Shown piece by piece: positions 5,162 through 15,852 of a DNA stretch of 57,185 bases; position 1 is the stretch's first letter; each line of letters starts with the position of its first letter. Under the pieces are notes generated by a model. It ran no database searches, had not been told where the DNA came from, and saw nothing but the letters and a program-made list of their open reading frames with translations. This DNA is from Dehalococcoidia bacterium (GTDB taxonomy: Bacteria; Chloroflexota; Dehalococcoidia; Lucifugimonadales; UBA3495). Where the stretch lies: the NCBI GenBank assembly GCA_030740155.1, contig JASLXV010000079.1, forward strand, positions 1 to 57,185. Reading direction: 5' to 3'. A program made the position numbers and the translations under genes.

Positions 5162-6502
5162 GTGAAATTGTTCAAGAGCAGGAGGCATTCCACCCCTGCT
5201 GCTGAGGCCGCCCGGACTCAGCAGCAGGGGTTTTTCTATGGTTGGTGGATCGTCATCGCGGGCGGATTGGCGATGTCCATCTCCGCCGGGATCAACTTCC
5301 ACGGCTTTAGCAACTTCATCATCCCCCTCGGTAAAGAGTTCGGTTGGAGCCGGACCATCATCTCCCTGGTCTTCTCCCTCGCTCGCCTGGAAGTGGGGCT
5401 GCTCGGCCCCATCGAGGGCTTCTTCGTTGACCGGTTCGGTCCCCGGCGCCTGATGATGATCGGCCTGCCGATCATGGCGTTGGGGTACGTGCTCATGAGC
5501 AAGATGGGCTGGCTGGCTGGCTTCTTCAACATCGACCCGCTGGTGGCCTTCTTCATCGTGTTCATCCTGTTCATAACCCTGGGCAACGGCATGGGGATGA
5601 GCACCCCGGTAACCACGGCGGTGGCCAACTGGTTCAACAAGAAGCGGGGATTGGCATTCGGTATCCTGTGGTCCGGAGTTGGGCTCGGCGGGTTTTTCGT
5701 GCCGGCTGTGGGCTGGTTGGTGGACCGGTTCGGCTGGAGCGACGCCACCCTGATTATCGGTGTCGCCCTCCTGTTCATTGCTCTCCCTATCGCCTCCGTG
5801 TTCCGGCACCGCCCCGAGGCCTACGGCCTATTGCCTGATGGCGAACCTCCCAGGTCCCGGGAGGGCGAGACCGGCCCTGCTCCTCCGGGGCAGCCCGACC
5901 TTTCTCGAGACTTCAGCGCCCGGGAAGCGCTGCGAACCTCGAGCTTCTGGTTCTTGAGCCTCTCCATAATGGCCCGCTCCCTGGTCAGCGGCGGCGTGGG
6001 CCTGCACCTGGTGCCGTTCTTCGTCGGCCTGGGAGCGTCGCCGGTCAGGGCTGCCTGGCTGGCCGGCATGGTGGGGGTCATGAGCATTCCGGGCCGGTTC
6101 GGGCTGAGCACGCTGGGGGACTACGTAAACCGCCGGTACGTAATGGCGGCATCGCTGGCCACGATGACCGTCGCCATCATTTTTATAGCCAGGGCCAGCA
6201 GCGTCTCCGGGGTCTTACCGGTCCTGCTGTTGTACTCGGCGTCTCAAGGGGGTATCTCGGTGATTCCCCAGGCGATAATCGCCGAGTATTTCGGGCGGAG
6301 GTCATACGCCACCATTCAGGGATTTCGCAGCTTCATTCAAACGGCTGGGATTGTCGTGGGCCCAATCATCTCCGGGTACGTTTTTGATACCACCGGCAGC
6401 TATGAGAAGGCGTTCCTGGGCTTCTCCGGCGCCACCATCGCCTCCATGGTGCTAGTGCTGCTGGCCAAGCCTCCGAAACGAAAGATCGAGCCGGCGCGGT
6501 AG
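5162..6502 (+). CDS. MFS transporter
   Basis: About 12 hydrophobic segments, FFYGWWIV start, GFFVDRFGPR motif A, WFNKKRGLAFG. Confidence 0.9.
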   Translation: MKLFKSRRHSTPAAEAARTQQQGFFYGWWIVIAGGLAMSISAGINFHGFSNFIIPLGKEFGWSRTIISLVFSLARLEVGLLGPIEGFFVDRFGPRRLMMIGLPIMALGYVLMSKMGWLAGFFNIDPLVAFFIVFILFITLGNGMGMSTPVTTAVANWFNKKRGLAFGILWSGVGLGGFFVPAVGWLVDRFGWSDATLIIGVALLFIALPIASVFRHRPEAYGLLPDGEPPRSREGETGPAPPGQPDLSRDFSAREALRTSSFWFLSLSIMARSLVSGGVGLHLVPFFVGLGASPVRAAWLAGMVGVMSIPGRFGLSTLGDYVNRRYVMAASLATMTVAIIFIARASSVSGVLPVLLLYSASQGGISVIPQAIIAEYFGRRSYATIQGFRSFIQTAGIVVGPIISGYVFDTTGSYEKAFLGFSGATIASMVLVLLAKPPKRKIEPAR

Positions 6503-9814: not shown

Positions 9815-10594
9815 TTATTTTGACCCGAAGAGCTTCGAGAAGAACCCCGGCTTGCGCTCGCTCTCTCCGGAGCCGCCCGAGACTCCTCCGCCGGAGCCGT
9901 TGCTGAAACGGCCCTCGAGTGCGGTTAGCCACTCGCGCTCGGCGGGATCGATCTCATCTTGAACCCATTGGATTATCCAGCGGGGATCATCGGCCCCTTC
10001 TTCGGTCAGGATCTGCTTGACCATGTCAAGCTGTTCCTGCTCGCTCATCCGTTCCTTTACCACGGAGCACACAAACGCTTCTTCATTCTCGAAGTGATCG
10101 TACTCTAGGATTCGAAGCGCCATGATCCGCCGGTACAGGTGCCTCCTGGTCCGGCCGGTAACGGTGCTCTCCCCTAGCGCGGCCTTCAAGGCGGCCTCAA
10201 CCTCTTGTGCCTTATCCGCCAGCTCCTGGTGCTGACCGTCCTCCATAGAGAGCATGGCAGCTTTCACGCTCTCTTCCAATCCGGCTCCATCGCCCTTTTC
10301 GATGAAACCCACCAGGCCTGTGCCCTGAGCCGCCAGCTCGGCGTGCTCGGACTCGTTGTCCCGGGCCGGCTGACAATCGGTCAAGGGGGCGGTCATGACC
10401 TTATCTTCGATGGTGGCGTGATAGAGCAGTTGCTTCATCCAGAACATGAAAGCTTCTTTAAGTGCTCCCAGGTCGCCGCCGCTCTGCGCCTCGGCCGCCA
10501 ACGCCTCCGTCCGCTCCGACTGGGCCCGGAAGGCTTTGTGCATCAGGATCATCATGTCAATGGGGGCCTCAAGTTTGGTAGTCTCCAATGCCAT
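9815..10594 (-). CDS. Hemerythrin/HHE-domain protein
   Basis: MHKAFR, LLYHATIED, EHAEL, DHFENEE (H, HxxxE, H, HxxxE pattern). Confidence 0.75.
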   Translation of the reverse strand: MALETTKLEAPIDMMILMHKAFRAQSERTEALAAEAQSGGDLGALKEAFMFWMKQLLYHATIEDKVMTAPLTDCQPARDNESEHAELAAQGTGLVGFIEKGDGAGLEESVKAAMLSMEDGQHQELADKAQEVEAALKAALGESTVTGRTRRHLYRRIMALRILEYDHFENEEAFVCSVVKERMSEQEQLDMVKQILTEEGADDPRWIIQWVQDEIDPAEREWLTALEGRFSNGSGGGVSGGSGESERKPGFFSKLFGSK

Positions 10595-12297: not shown

Positions 12298-13074
12298 TTA
12301 TCTCTTGCCCCACAGTCTCCCCGTGAACACTCCATCGTAGATTATTCCGGCAATGGCGGCCCCGCCCAACGGCCCAACCCAGTAGATCCAGTGGTCCGTC
12401 CACATCTCGGCAGCCAACGCCGGACCCAAAGCCCGGGCCGGATTCATGGCCGCTCCGGTCAATCCCCAGGCCAGGAGAGTCCCCACGACCACAATCAGGC
12501 CCACGGCTATCGGAGCGACGGGTGACGCCCCTTCACCGGGACCGATGACGGCCGCCAACATCACGAAGACCAGGACGAAGCCGAGGATCAACTCGATGAC
12601 CAGGGCCGACCCAAGGTTATCCACCGCGATCGGATTCCACGCCACGCCACCCAAATTCCCTTCGATGCCTATCGCGACGTCAGTCAGCACCACCTTGAGA
12701 ATATATGAGGCGACGATGGCGCCGGCTACTTGGCCAATCACATACACGACGCCTTTGGCCACGCCCATGCGTCCGGTGACCACGGCGCCAAAGGTTACCG
12801 CCGGATTGATGTGCCCACCGGAGATACCGACGGTCAGGGCCACCAATGCCATGTAGGTGAACCCCAAGGCCAAGGCGATTGCCACTAGTCTGGCACTGCC
12901 GGTCAAGACCGTGGCATCCGCCGCCACGTTGCCGGAAAGGACGTCCAGGGCACCCGTGGCGATGATGGCGCCCGTCCCGACGAGAACGAACACCAAGACG
13001 CCGATGGTCTCTGCCACCACCCCTCTCCACGTGTCGACTGACGTGAGGTCTCCAATGCCCAGTATTTTGTCCAT
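12298..13074 (-). CDS. MIP/aquaporin family channel
   Basis: ISGGHINPAVT and AAMNPARALGP (two NPA motifs), HWIYWVGPL. Confidence 0.92.
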   Translation of the reverse strand: MDKILGIGDLTSVDTWRGVVAETIGVLVFVLVGTGAIIATGALDVLSGNVAADATVLTGSARLVAIALALGFTYMALVALTVGISGGHINPAVTFGAVVTGRMGVAKGVVYVIGQVAGAIVASYILKVVLTDVAIGIEGNLGGVAWNPIAVDNLGSALVIELILGFVLVFVMLAAVIGPGEGASPVAPIAVGLIVVVGTLLAWGLTGAAMNPARALGPALAAEMWTDHWIYWVGPLGGAAIAGIIYDGVFTGRLWGKR

Positions 13075-13663
13075 CGGTCTACCTCCTTTAGACAGTTATC
13101 CAAGCCGATGCCGGACTGTGCCGGCACAACTCCCTCGGTGGTGCCGGCCCCGCGGGCCGGCGTTCTTGGCAGGCTCCCGGCGTACCCAGGGGCAAAAGAA
13201 CAATTGGGGCAACGGCACTTCTGCGCCGGAGCCCCACTGCACCCATCCCGCCGGTCCCGACGAAAAGTGTGTATCGGATGGCTAGTTTACGTCGAGTGAC
13301 AAGCTAAATATCGATAGAAGCTTCCCAATATCATTGAGTGCCCCGAGGCTACCATGGAAACCAAGATTTTGCAATGCAATCCTGCATCCTAATTCGGCCA
13401 CACCTGAATAGGCGGGCCCCGGCTGACGCTCAGGCGATGCGGTTCTCCAATTTCATAGCCAACACGTCATTGCTGAGACCGAGGGTTGTGGGCAGCTTGG
13501 TTCTGATCCCGGATAGAGGCGCGTCCGGGGCCGAGTCTCGCAAGCCGGCGACAGCCATCAGGAGGACCCCGGCGCCAATCGCGCTTACGGCCCGGCCCCG
13601 CGCCGGACTTCCAGTTGTCATCAGCAACCCTTCATGTGCATCAGACATTTGTAAACCCAGCCC

Positions 13664-14524
13664 TCATGCCAGCGACTCCAGGAACCGGTCGACCGGCATC
13701 CAGTCGCCATGGCTTGGCAACTCTCCTCCACCCCAGTCCCGCAGGTGCTCTTCCGACCGGAAGAGGTTATTATTGCCTCAGGTGCCGCCCCGGTAGACGA
13801 CGGTCTCATCCGGGGACACGCGAGCCAGCGCTCCGTCCGCAACGCCGATCTGAATCCGGTCCACACAATGGGCGCAGGCGTCGTCGAGGGTCAGCGACCG
13901 TCCCCGGTACTGGCTGCTGACCAGCAGCAAGAAGTCCACGGCTCAGGATATTCCGAACCGCTCTCCCGTATCCAGAGTCACCGTATGGAAGGAAAACCCA
14001 AGCCCATCCAGCAGGCGCTCGTGACCTTCGTTAAGGGAGTAGTGAGCGGCGCGCCAGCCATCCTCGATGAAAAGGAAGTCGATCAGGCCCAGCATGCGGA
14101 GGGCACGGTGAACACCCTGAACCGTGAGACCGAGAACCGCCGCTGTCTCCTCGGGGCGGGGCAGTGACAAACCCTCGCGGTGGGCCATCAAAATATGCCG
14201 CGCCACCAGTTTCTCATCCTCGGAGAGCAGGATAGATGCCGGGTGCCAGGTATCCACCTGGTCAGCCCATCGCTTGGAGAACCCCCCCTCCCCGGCCAGG
14301 GCTTCATCCGGCAGCCGTCCTAGGGACGCCAATATCTCGCGCTGCTTTTCGGGGCCGAGGAGCGTGCCGCGCCACTGCCCCTCCAGCCGGCCGGCCAGCC
14401 GCCAGCGCAGGCCCGGATCGTCGGGGAGGCCCAACCGCTCCATGGCCTGAGGGATGCTGGTGAGGCGCAAGCCGGTGGACCAGTCCGAGGTCAGAACATC
14501 TTCCAGCCGGTGTTCGGATTCCAA
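13664..14524 (-). CDS. MerB-like organometallic lyase selenoprotein, 286 aa with two Sec (U194, U249)
   Basis: Reading through TGA 13943-13945 and TGA 13778-13780 gives GERFGISUAVDFLL...DDACAHC...VSPDETVVYRGGTUGNNNLFRSEEHLRDW, which aligns to MerB WCALD...SHC...FCCHVHFF..W. Each TGA is followed by a SECIS-like hairpin. Confidence 0.8.
13748..13765 (-). promoter_or_regulatory. SECIS-like hairpin for the second UGA of the MerB-like gene
   Basis: CUCUUCC-GGUC-GGAAGAG, starting 12 nt after the UGA. Confidence 0.8.
13913..13928 (-). promoter_or_regulatory. SECIS-like hairpin for the first UGA of the MerB-like gene
   Basis: GCUGCU-GGUC-AGCAGC, starting 14 nt after the UGA. Confidence 0.8.
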
Positions 14525-14527
14525 AAC

Positions 14528-14935
14528 CTACTCCACGCAACAGGCCATCATCGATACATCGTGGGTGAAGGCCTGGGCCACCCGTTTGATGCCTTCACTA
14601 AAGGTCCGAAAAACGTGCAGAGTATCGATGAGGTCGTCAACGGTCAGGCCGAACTTCACGGCTAGGGTGGCCTCATGAATCAAGTCGGCCGCGTTGGGCG
14701 CGACGATGTGCACCCCCAGGACCTTGGAGCTTCGCGGGTGGATGGCCATCTTGAAGACTCCCCGTTCCTCTTTGAGGGCCTGGGCCTTGGGAACGGCATC
14801 CATGTAGATGGTGCGACAAGAGCAGGCGTTGAAGCGCTGCATCTCCTGGTCCTCGGTGAGGCCCACGGCGGCCACCTGGGGATTGGTGAACACGGCGTGG
14901 GGTACGTGCTCGTAGTTGATGCTGCGCACCGGCAC
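14528..14935 (-). pseudogene. merA: Mercuric reductase (MerA) C-terminal dimerisation domain only; FAD/NADPH domains missing
   Basis: [29 protein letters not shown]-like [20 protein letters not shown]-terminal MACCVE vicinal cysteines. No room for the N-terminal domains because the glutaredoxin stops at 14979. Confidence 0.75.
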
Positions 14936-14978
14936 GGTCCCATTGGGCGGTTCTTCGTTGACTCGGGCGCCGGGCAGG

Positions 14979-15215
14979 TTATGCCGCCAGCAACCTCTCG
15001 AGCTTTTGGCGGTCGAAGCCGACGACCACCTCTCCATCTATCACGGTAACCGGCGTGGTCAGAACCCCGATTCTGGTCAGTTCAGTCATGGCCGAGGCAT
15101 CGTTGATGATGTCCCTCACCTGGAATGAGATACCGGTCTGGGAAAGAAACTCTTCCGTGCGGTCACAGAAGTGTCAACCATCGGGCTGAACGTAAAGGAG
15201 AACACGAGGGGCCAT
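14979..15215 (-). CDS. Glutaredoxin/NrdH-like selenoprotein with UHFC active site (78 aa, absent from the ORF track)
   Basis: GGAGG RBS, then [36 protein letters not shown]...[32 protein letters not shown] at 15174-15176. Has the cis-Pro TP motif and the Grx C-terminal GFD motif. Confidence 0.88.
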
Positions 15216-15305
15216 GTATTTGCCTCCGCTGGTATTGGTTCCGGGTTGCTCGAAGATCGGGCCGGCTCCGACAGTAGCCGCCGTTTCCCGGCCGGATTGA
15301 CCTGG

Positions 15306-15791
15306 TCAAAGGCCCCGGCCGCTTCCTCTGGCCCCCGCCTTTCCTACCCGGCGGTCGTCGAGCCAGCCCACGGCTGCCTCCCCTTCGGCGGGTGCGCTTC
15401 CCTCGATGATCCCGCATATGTCTCCGCCTAACGGTCTGCAGTCCACCAGGCCGCCCGCCTGGTCTCGCAGCGTGGAAAGCTCGGCCCGGAACTCATGGAG
15501 TTCCGCGATGGCCTTCTCAACCTGGGACAGTTTTTCTTCGAGAAGCGTTCGAACATGGACGCACGTGGGTTCCCGGCGGTCGTGTAGCTGCAGGACGCTC
15601 TTGATCTCACTCAGCGAGAGGCCAAGGCGTTTGGCTTTTAGAACGAAGTCCAGCCGTTTCGCATCGGCTTCGCCGTAGACCCTGTATCCGGACGTGGTGC
15701 GGACAGGCTCGGGCAGCAAGCCCTCCCCTTCGTAGAAGCGGATGGTTTTCGCCGTCAGGCCAGTTGCCGCCGCCAGCTCACCGATTCTCAC
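15306..15791 (-). CDS. MerR-family heavy-metal-responsive transcriptional regulator
   Basis: RIGELAAATGLTAKTIRFYEGEGLL HTH. Three-Cys pattern PTC...DC-x7-C as in divalent-metal sensors (MerR/ZntR/CadR). Confidence 0.92.
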   Translation of the reverse strand: MRIGELAAATGLTAKTIRFYEGEGLLPEPVRTTSGYRVYGEADAKRLDFVLKAKRLGLSLSEIKSVLQLHDRREPTCVHVRTLLEEKLSQVEKAIAELHEFRAELSTLRDQAGGLVDCRPLGGDICGIIEGSAPAEGEAAVGWLDDRRVGKAGARGSGRGL

Positions 15792-15820
15792 AGGCCAACC
15801 TCCAGAGACCGCCTGAATCG

Positions 15821-15852
15821 ATTATAAACCTTCCATTTGAATGGAAGGTCAA
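15821..15852 (-). promoter_or_regulatory. MerR-type promoter/operator
   Basis: Minus strand TTGACC, 20-nt spacer, TATAAT, with dyad ACCTTCC-N8-GGAAGGT (15828-15849) in the over-long spacer. Confidence 0.9.

Follow-up and report, generated by a model that had tools for sequence, protein, structure and literature searches.

A 57,185-nucleotide (nt) stretch of DNA from a Dehalococcoidia bacterium (assembly GCA_030740155.1, contig JASLXV010000079.1, positions 1 to 57,185; referred to here as the window) carries four co-oriented features on its minus strand at positions 13664-15852, namely a merR gene, a glutaredoxin-like gene, a piece of merA and a MerB-like gene. The last of these almost certainly encodes a real selenoprotein of the MerB fold, with selenocysteine (Sec, U) at both of the positions where MerB has its catalytic cysteines. 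The locus as a whole is probably a marine bacterial operon of the mer type, partly decayed, that is controlled by a MerR-family regulator and encodes this two-Sec MerB-like enzyme together with a Sec-containing glutaredoxin. The gene content, coordinates and co-orientation given in an earlier sequence-only reading of this stretch were confirmed to the base by the reading of open reading frames (ORFs) and by Pfam and NCBIfam matches. The three UGA codons for which that reading had proposed read-through were also found in frame, one in the glutaredoxin-like gene (15176-15174) and two in the MerB-like gene (13945-13943 and 13780-13778).

A MerB-like protein with selenocysteine at both metal-ligand positions

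The long-form MerB-like gene (13664-14524, minus strand; coding positions 14524-13667, TGA stop at 13666-13664) starts with a TTG codon, located one codon past the stop of the merA piece and preceded by GGAG 6 nt upstream. It encodes a protein of 286 amino acids (aa) with the residues Sec194-x-x-Asp197 and Sec249, the UGA codon at 13945-13943 corresponding to residue 194 and that at 13780-13778 to residue 249. The Pfam MerB family (PF03243) matched residues 180-266 with 29.0 bits, which is marginally above the gathering cut-off of 27, and MerB2 in the PDB was matched with an E-value of 1e-4 by the single sequence and of 5e-11 by the family profile. In alignments with MerB2 and with the canonical MerB proteins encoded next door in marine relatives, U194, D197 and U249 coincide with the catalytic Cys, Asp and Cys, and are the equivalents of Cys96, Asp99 and Cys159 in MerB. 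In an alignment of 28 members these three positions were invariant, being U or C, D, and U, respectively. An exhaustive search against clusters at 50% identity found 96 clusters at E ≤0.001 and 57 at E ≤1e-10.

An AlphaFold2 model built from the family alignment reached a predicted local distance difference test score (pLDDT) of 90 and a predicted template modelling score (pTM) of 0.87. The top 10 Foldseek matches in the PDB were all MerB or MerB2 (E 7e-8 to 2.4e-5). With VIA-align, 113 residues were superposed on MerB (3f0o_B) with Z 13.8 and a root-mean-square deviation of 2.6 Å, MerB2 was matched with Z 10.2, and identity in the structural alignments to MerB and MerB2 was only 14-22%. The predicted architecture consists of an extra helical N-terminus of about 95 aa, a winged helix and the MerB core, and the MerB catalytic fold of the protein is shown by this model.

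Winged-helix repressors (LexA, MntR and MarR) also matched the model, at residues ~100-170 with Z 8-9.8 (VIA-align). This match would suit a protein that is not a catalyst, and that instead serves as a high-affinity trap or metallochaperone for soft metals (Hg, Cd, Cu) or as a metal-sensing winged-helix DNA-binding protein. As a matter of general chemistry, two selenolates bind Hg(II) almost irreversibly, and the genome has no MerA that could take the metal away, both of which would agree with such a role. However, the proton-donor Asp of MerB, which would be needless for mere binding, is invariant in 28 of the 28 aligned members, canonical MerB too has an N-terminal helix-turn-helix region, and a separate MerR-family regulator is already present at the locus. 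A function in trapping or sensing is considered improbable.

Database records of the family are truncated. Gene callers end the MerB-like protein at 193 aa, and a word-indexed search of 5.8 billion proteins returned 60 relatives, most of them 186-193 aa long and covering two thirds of the query. Among the 11 of these 60 that were read, five stop just before the position of the first UGA (site 1) and six, with Cys at that position, stop just before the position of the second (site 2). The DNA of 66 loci was fetched (3 from genomes of the same phylum, 14 from genomes of named species and 49 from metagenomes; 3 of the 66 nearly duplicate the window). Site 1 was found to be U in 52 of the 66 loci, C in 11 and unreadable in 3, and site 2 to be U in 56, S in one (a TCA codon in locus L072) and unreadable in 9 due to contig ends, frameshifts and pattern misses; in L051, site 2 is U by eye. 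Apart from the single S, the homologous positions were thus U or C, as was expected from the sequence-only reading, and Cys occupies both sites in 9 of the 11 full-length homologues that are more distant. The peptide that follows each UGA is strongly conserved, e.g., GGTUGQNNLFRSEEH. Some members look damaged; a third TGA interrupts a conserved stretch in L053 (5983-6852), and L054 and L088 have internal hard stops. These oddities, as well as the Ser of L072, may represent pseudogenes, strain variants or assembly errors.

The machinery for Sec, which had been named as a point to be checked, is present in the genome, with matches for selA (548.6 bits), selB (322.8 bits) and selD (376.8 bits) and a tRNA-SeC with the anticodon TCA. 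The selD gene (L013, C32:19124-20044) has one in-frame TGA, which suggests that the selenophosphate synthetase is itself a selenoprotein.

A candidate selenocysteine insertion sequence (SECIS) hairpin lies after each of the two UGA codons. Counted from the U of UGA, hairpin 1 (13913-13928, minus strand) spans letters 18-33 and has a 6-base-pair (bp) stem that starts 14 nt past the UGA at 13943-13945, while hairpin 2 (13748-13765, minus strand) spans letters 16-33 and has a 7-bp stem that starts 12 nt past the UGA at 13778-13780; both have a GGUC loop. Across 34 distinct UGA-bearing sequences, 95.1% of the cells of hairpin 1 were paired, with the pair 22-29 being UA in 17 and CG in 16 of them, and with another pair changing from G-C to C-G. 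For hairpin 2, 97.9% of the cells were paired across 41 sequences, with compensatory changes at two pairs. Some of the compensatory changes alter the encoded amino acid, for example from Ser to Asn. For both hairpins the covariation score was matched by 0 of 500 shuffles, a test that provides support and not proof, as kinship alone allows related sequences to beat shuffles without any structure; slid controls were 12.7-69.1% paired. Greater weight is given to the compensatory changes that alter an amino acid and to the loss of the hairpin in 6 of the 9 distinct Cys forms at site 1.

If the UGA codons were true stops, the region would represent a broken gene or three small genes. The end of the called proteins at 193 aa would be in line with this, as would the unremarkable folding energies of single sequences, which for the 60 nt after each UGA were no better than those of shuffles (z 0.15, -0.33 and -0.89). 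By contrast, dozens of diverged loci share the same two UGA codons and remain conserved as coding sequence downstream of these, Cys replaces them in some members, the hairpins covary and the genome has the Sec machinery. True stops can hardly be the explanation, and decoding of both UGA codons of the MerB-like gene as selenocysteine is well supported by these sequence comparisons. The terminal TGA (13666-13664) was considered as a third Sec codon and was rejected. It is read as the stop because it has no hairpin (-6.1 kcal/mol, z +2.19) and because homologues end there at TAA, TAG or a further TGA.

The same genome carries a shorter paralogue (L033, 1291-1935; C89:24701-25345) of 214 aa, which also has UGA at both catalytic Cys positions, matches Pfam MerB with 69.7 bits and keeps NLFRSEEH after its second UGA. 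While both genes have two UGA codons, the window gene is a long form (286 versus 214 aa) with Asp at +3, where the paralogue has Glu. The paralogue is followed by a gene for a flavoprotein with a FAD_binding_2 domain and is located about 2.6 kilobases from selA.

Promoter, regulator and transcription

Upstream of merR, a MerR-type promoter/operator was identified at 15821-15852 (minus strand), with the structure TTGACC-20 nt-TATAAT and with the inverted repeat ACCTTCCATT / AATGGAAGGT within the spacer. The repeat (15828-15849) is a perfect 10-2-10 palindrome with arms at 15828-15837 and 15840-15849. A long spacer that encloses a dyad is a hallmark of promoters activated by MerR-family regulators. 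The presence of such a promoter had been proposed from the letters alone and is upheld here, as the long-spacer pattern matched once in the 57-kilobase window, with 0.05 matches expected by chance. A standard promoter scan found no promoter at merR, because the spacer of 20 nt is outside the range of 16-18 nt that the scan admits.

The merR gene (15306-15791, minus strand; GTG start with GGAGG upstream) encodes a predicted MerR-family metal-responsive regulator of 161 aa with Cys residues at 77, 118 and 126, which matched the Pfam families MerR, MerR_1 and MerR-DNA-bind with 58-68 bits. Among the NCBIfam models, ZntR scored 114 bits, CadR/PbrR 105.5, CueR 97 and MerR 95.2, all of these being under the respective cut-offs (150.85 bits for the MerR equivalog). 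As no NCBIfam cut-off for a regulator was reached, these scores do not assign it a particular metal. The operon is quite likely to be induced by metal.

A MerR-family regulator with a long-spacer dyad promoter is the feature of mer operons that is present at this locus. Mer operons that start with merR represent the Gram-positive arrangement, and the locus resembles these in having the regulator first, a dyad promoter with a spacer of 19-20 nt and detoxification genes next. It differs from them in lacking a transporter, in having only the last third of merA and in encoding two selenoproteins.

In three RNA libraries, contigs were found for parts of the locus (15470-15618, 15140-15349, 15035-15185, 14937-15087, 14810-14960 and 14480-14721). 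They span merR, the junction between merR and the glutaredoxin-like gene, the glutaredoxin-like gene, the merA piece and, of the MerB-like gene, its first 45 nt, and do not reach 13664-14479. These contigs are compatible with transcription of the operon and represent weak evidence for it, because they are contigs and because such libraries can contain DNA.

The merA remnant

The merA ORF (14528-15037, minus strand) has homology to MerA only at 14531-14926. This stretch (14926-14531) corresponds to positions 334-465 of the 465 positions of the NCBIfam MerA model TIGR02053 (174.5 bits), and comprises the dimerisation domain and the C-terminal Cys-Cys tail, ending in ...ACCVE. The N-terminal two thirds of merA are gone and their place is occupied by the glutaredoxin-like gene, the 3' end of which is overlapped by the 5' part of the merA ORF. 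The C-terminus of the full-length MerA in L066, L073 and L077 shares 76-78% identity with the piece, and the MerA proteins of the closest relatives, full or cut by a contig end, are 76-88% identical to it. Over a stretch of 750 bp, only one base (at 14744) sets the window and its near-identical copies L062, L063 and L068 apart, being missing in L062 and L068. The same deletion was found in an independent seawater DNA run (X4) at a depth of 15, so that the merA frame is shifted in three of five assemblies (L062, L068 and X4) and intact in the window and L063. Because this 1-bp frameshift is present in some copies and absent from others of a stretch that is otherwise frozen, the piece is probably a non-functional pseudogene. 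It appears to be decaying, so that the module is degenerate here.

Between the merA remnant and the MerB-like gene, which share one reading frame, there are only a TAG and one codon (14524-14530). The GGAG located 6 nt before the TTG start suggests translational coupling between them.

The piece could also be seen as a working stand-alone dimerisation domain, with a Cys-Cys tail that would take Hg(II) from the lyase in a manner comparable to SaoC. Its ORF is open in the window, keeps the Cys-Cys tail of MerA and stops one codon before the MerB-like start in the same frame, RNA-library contigs cover it, and a 2026 review, as far as its table goes, lists proteins ending in CC-COOH as accompanying SaoL, a MerB-like selenoprotein discussed below. 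Such a role is nevertheless quite unlikely, given the frameshift at 14744 in three of five independent assemblies and the full 478-aa enzyme in relatives. In addition, the homology begins 53 nt past the stop of the glutaredoxin-like gene, and no ribosome-binding motif was seen by eye before a possible in-frame start.

A predicted glutaredoxin-like selenoprotein

The glutaredoxin-like gene (14979-15215, minus strand) encodes 78 aa with a predicted Sec at residue 14 (UGA at 15174-15176) in the motif G-U-H-F-C (UxxC). The product matched Pfam Glutaredoxin across the UGA with 45.7 bits (cut-off 22.9), and the NCBIfam model GlrX_YruB (TIGR02196) with 60.4 bits, under its cut-off of 88.55. With GlrX_YruB and the Uxx-star small proteins it shares the thioredoxin fold and a redox motif that begins with Sec or Cys; it differs from these in remaining under all NCBIfam cut-offs and in being located in a MerR-controlled operon. 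Homologues were found in 127 of 301 genomes of the class, a tally that includes one genome flagged as unpublished (G602), indicating a family that is common there. At the position of the UGA, many of the best tblastn homologues have one TGA and others have Cys.

Two overlapping candidate SECIS hairpins follow this UGA at 15141-15171 (minus strand). One of these, at 15141-15156, is formed by the codons for (K/E)EFLS, and a hairpin is found at the same place in most of the UGA-bearing homologues printed. It overlaps the second, stronger hairpin (15152-15171), which has an 8-bp stem, and either of the two may be the SECIS of this gene. In a second lineage (L098/L099), a UxxC glutaredoxin-like gene with the motif G-U-A-A-C adjoins the MerB-like gene on the opposite strand.

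Relation to known MerB-like proteins

The literature searched, as far as its texts were available, contains MerB-like proteins with selenocysteine only in the form of SaoL, the "selenocysteine-assisted organometallic lyase" (NCBIfam NF040728; Haft & Gwadz, bioRxiv 10.1101/2022.07.06.499078). According to the available part of that preprint, SaoL has one Sec and its triad of Cys99, Asp102 and Sec162 corresponds to that of MerB; in the same part, the catalogue of the authors contains no selenoprotein of mercury resistance, and they argue that SaoL belongs to organometallic metabolism (Haft & Gwadz, bioRxiv 10.1101/2022.07.06.499078). The tables of a 2022 review and of the 2026 review likewise give SaoL as the sole MerB-like selenoprotein. 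In a large survey of mer genes from 2021, Cys96, Asp99 and Cys159 of MerB are described as strictly conserved and catalytic, and in the portion available the word stem "selen" occurs only in the reference list.

The MerB-like protein of the window and SaoL have in common the MerB fold, a Sec at the position of Cys159, the equivalent of Asp99 and truncation in databases at a UGA. By comparison, SaoL has its one Sec in a C-U motif and Cys at the position of Cys96, whereas the window protein would have Sec at both positions, the second in a T-U motif (248-249), and adds an N-terminal region of about 95 aa. The window protein scored 19.7 bits with the SaoL model NF040728, for which the cut-off is 140. 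The gene contexts also differ, that of the window being mer-type and that of SaoL being the nine-gene SAO locus; no Sao model was among the NCBIfam matches of the neighbour proteins scanned. Hosts of the window type are marine and Chloroflexota-like, while SAO hosts are described as strict anaerobes. Compared to MerB and MerB2 (PDB 3f0o and 5c17), the core fold (Z 10-14), the ligand-acid-ligand triad and the neighbouring MerA and MerR are shared; the window protein differs in having selenium in place of sulfur at both ligands, a length of 286 versus ~210 aa, and scores under the NCBIfam MerB cut-offs. The suggestion of the sequence-only reading that this architecture had not been described therefore stands in part; the one-Sec MerB-like SaoL had already been published, and the two-Sec long form in a mer-type operon was unmatched in the literature searched. 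Particular to the window are this long two-Sec form, its location in an operon under MerR control alongside a Sec glutaredoxin, and the decayed merA.

Relatives and gene neighbourhoods

The closest relatives of the MerB-like gene are 50-62% identical to it. Intact versions of merA, the search for which had been suggested by the sequence-only reading, are present among these; a full-length MerA (478 aa) is encoded upstream of the MerB-like gene in L066 and L077, that of L066 scoring 523.5 bits against a cut-off of 454, and parts of MerA cut by contig ends are found upstream in L064, L067 and L073. A MerR gene follows the MerB-like gene in L066 and L086 and is also located beside it in L098/L099 and L108. 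In L098/L099, a MerT-HMA fusion and an HMA gene are found as well, and in other distant branches MerC and MerA (L109) or MerA (L105) were identified. The neighbours in L097 are an HMA gene and a gene for a membrane protein with a CC motif; a 23-aa tblastn match to "MerA" in this locus was rejected, as the genes upstream are these two.

In the L066 cluster, additional candidate selenoproteins were seen, one with an HMA domain and the metal motif C-x-x-U and another that is redoxin/TlpA-like with G-U-P-T-C, as well as a YHS-domain gene (side features at 7-222, 2242-2400 and 5659-6486). The L066 orthologue of the MerB-like protein matched 0 NCBIfam families.

In four marine loci, a gene for a canonical Cys-type MerB (Pfam ~95-98 bits) is located directly upstream of the MerB-like gene (L048, 4876-5721; L049, 2915-3691; L050, 4988-5713; L057, 587-1273). 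Judged by their sequences, these loci are a tandem of a sulfur version and a selenium version of MerB. Ahead of the canonical MerB gene is one for a LuxR/alpha-beta-hydrolase, and L048 and L049 also have a GMC oxidoreductase gene that is intact; L050 keeps only a fragment of the latter and the contig of L057 is cut before it. No MerA or MerR was found beside the gene in these four loci.

Among the records with names, 13 of 14 are Chloroflexota, Dehalococcoidia or SAR202 and one is "Armatimonadetes". Of 401 genomes sampled evenly across the phylum, only three besides that of the window gave a strong match. The locus also occurs in environmental DNA, as 17 DNA runs of marine or seawater origin, which represent at least 10 studies, contained at least 0.93 of the sampled words of the stretch.

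These neighbourhoods bear on whether the family serves resistance at all. As an alternative, the protein could be a selenium-dependent organometallic enzyme of metabolism, as has been proposed for SaoL, that makes or breaks bonds between carbon and another metal or metalloid (e.g., As, Sn, Pb or Co) or handles an organometal intermediate, and the mer-like neighbours would then reflect shared handling of soft metals. Many marine members are found without MerA or MerR, among genes for GMC oxidoreductase, LuxR/alpha-beta-hydrolase, phosphotriesterase, metallophosphoesterase and CoA-transferase, a setting that fits metabolism as well as resistance. In the window, the MerB-like gene has been retained despite a broken merA, and the regulator is no clear MerR equivalog. 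The same case is made for SaoL by Haft & Gwadz in the part of the preprint available (bioRxiv 10.1101/2022.07.06.499078). On the other hand, at least three separate lineages have MerA, MerR, MerT/MerC-like or HMA genes alongside, canonical MerB is paired with the gene in the four marine loci, and the Cys/Sec-Asp-Cys/Sec triad is that of MerB. A metabolic role is held to be rather unlikely.

Other features of the window

A small ORF of 72 aa with a hydrophobic stretch (13430-13648, minus strand) is in frame with the MerB-like gene and located 15 nt past its TGA stop. No Pfam or NCBIfam family matched this ORF, relatives were found only in the near-identical copies L062 and L063, and its membership in the operon is uncertain. 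Further neighbours in the window are a MIP channel and a branched-chain-type ABC transporter. The MIP-family channel gene (12298-13074, minus strand; Pfam 186.9 bits) has the same orientation, at a distance of 355 nt downstream from the small ORF; in other lineages, no such gene adjoins the MerB-like gene. ARAGORN called a tRNA-Gly (CCC) of 97 nt at 9887-9983 (minus strand), which is unusually long and overlaps ORFs, and which represents either a false call or an odd gene.

Proposed function and its weighing

In MerB, the metal is bound by two thiolates, and the leaving carbon receives its proton from Asp99. By analogy, cleavage of the mercury-carbon (Hg-C) bond is slightly favoured as the physiological activity of the MerB-like protein. 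Upon binding of a soft metal by the regulator, the operon would be switched on, and merR, the UxxC glutaredoxin-like gene, the merA pseudogene and the MerB-like gene would be transcribed in this order from the long-spacer promoter. The two selenolates would bind an organomercurial or a related organometal and Asp197 would protonate the carbon, as in MerB. Since the Hg-Se bond is tighter, release of the product would be the hard step. The metal on the selenols could be stripped by thiol or selenol partners, for example by the UxxC glutaredoxin-like protein from the same operon; alternatively, such partners could reduce an oxidised Se-Se or Se-S form of the enzyme. In relatives that keep MerA, stripping and reduction would be carried out by MerA. 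A direct hand-off between the lyase and the glutaredoxin is rather doubtful, the extra support for it being limited to the UxxC glutaredoxin-like gene beside the MerB-like gene in L098/L099.

A number of observations weigh against reading the locus as a mer-type operon with a selenium-based lyase. The conserved synteny of the four-gene cassette, which the sequence-only reading led one to expect, is absent outside this species; the exact cassette was found only in near-identical copies (L062, L063 and L068), and only its parts recur elsewhere. The marine neighbourhoods without MerA or MerR point in the same direction. Sequence likeness to MerB is weak, the Pfam score being just 2 bits above the cut-off, and the window protein was not matched by the NCBIfam MerB equivalogs NF009710 and NF033555 (cut-offs 193 and 200 bits). 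The extra N-terminal region of the family has no assigned role, the regulator ranks the ZntR and CadR models above MerR and is below every cut-off, and the folding energies of single sequences lend no help to the hairpins. Neither MerT nor MerC was found in the 93.7%-complete genome, MerP not having been searched genome-wide; the remark of the sequence-only reading that the cassette contains no merT or merP transporter genes was accurate, and Hg(II) uptake genes are lacking in the genome to the extent of the MerT and MerC searches. An intact mercuric reductase MerA is also lacking, as the best candidate in the genome remains under the cut-off (399 versus 454 bits) and does not have the C-terminal pair of Cys residues. 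Without an intact MerA and without MerT or MerC, the classical route of Hg(II) disposal is missing in this genome. Finally, two selenolates should grip Hg(II) very tightly, and turnover is explained here by assumption only.

Implications

The stretch encodes a MerB-fold protein predicted to carry selenium at both metal ligands, members of its family are found in mer-type clusters, and the locus is nearly unchanged across seawater metagenomes. It is possible, though unlikely and speculative, that marine bacteria of the Dehalococcoidia and SAR202 type break down methylmercury by a selenium-based route independent of MerA, in which a di-selenol enzyme would cleave the bond and Hg would be passed to, or stripped by, the Sec glutaredoxin, perhaps with an inert Hg-Se end product instead of Hg(0). 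If this selenium route were true, surveys that require Cys96, Asp99 and Cys159 would have missed a real share of the demethylation potential of the ocean; such genes would be missed because gene callers truncate them at UGA. If the protein is a lyase, annotation pipelines would need a model for the family, as no NCBIfam model matched, and these hidden genes would become part of the question of which organisms degrade methylmercury in the sea. The family would then also represent a natural test of the effect of selenium on cleavage of the Hg-C bond and on product release.

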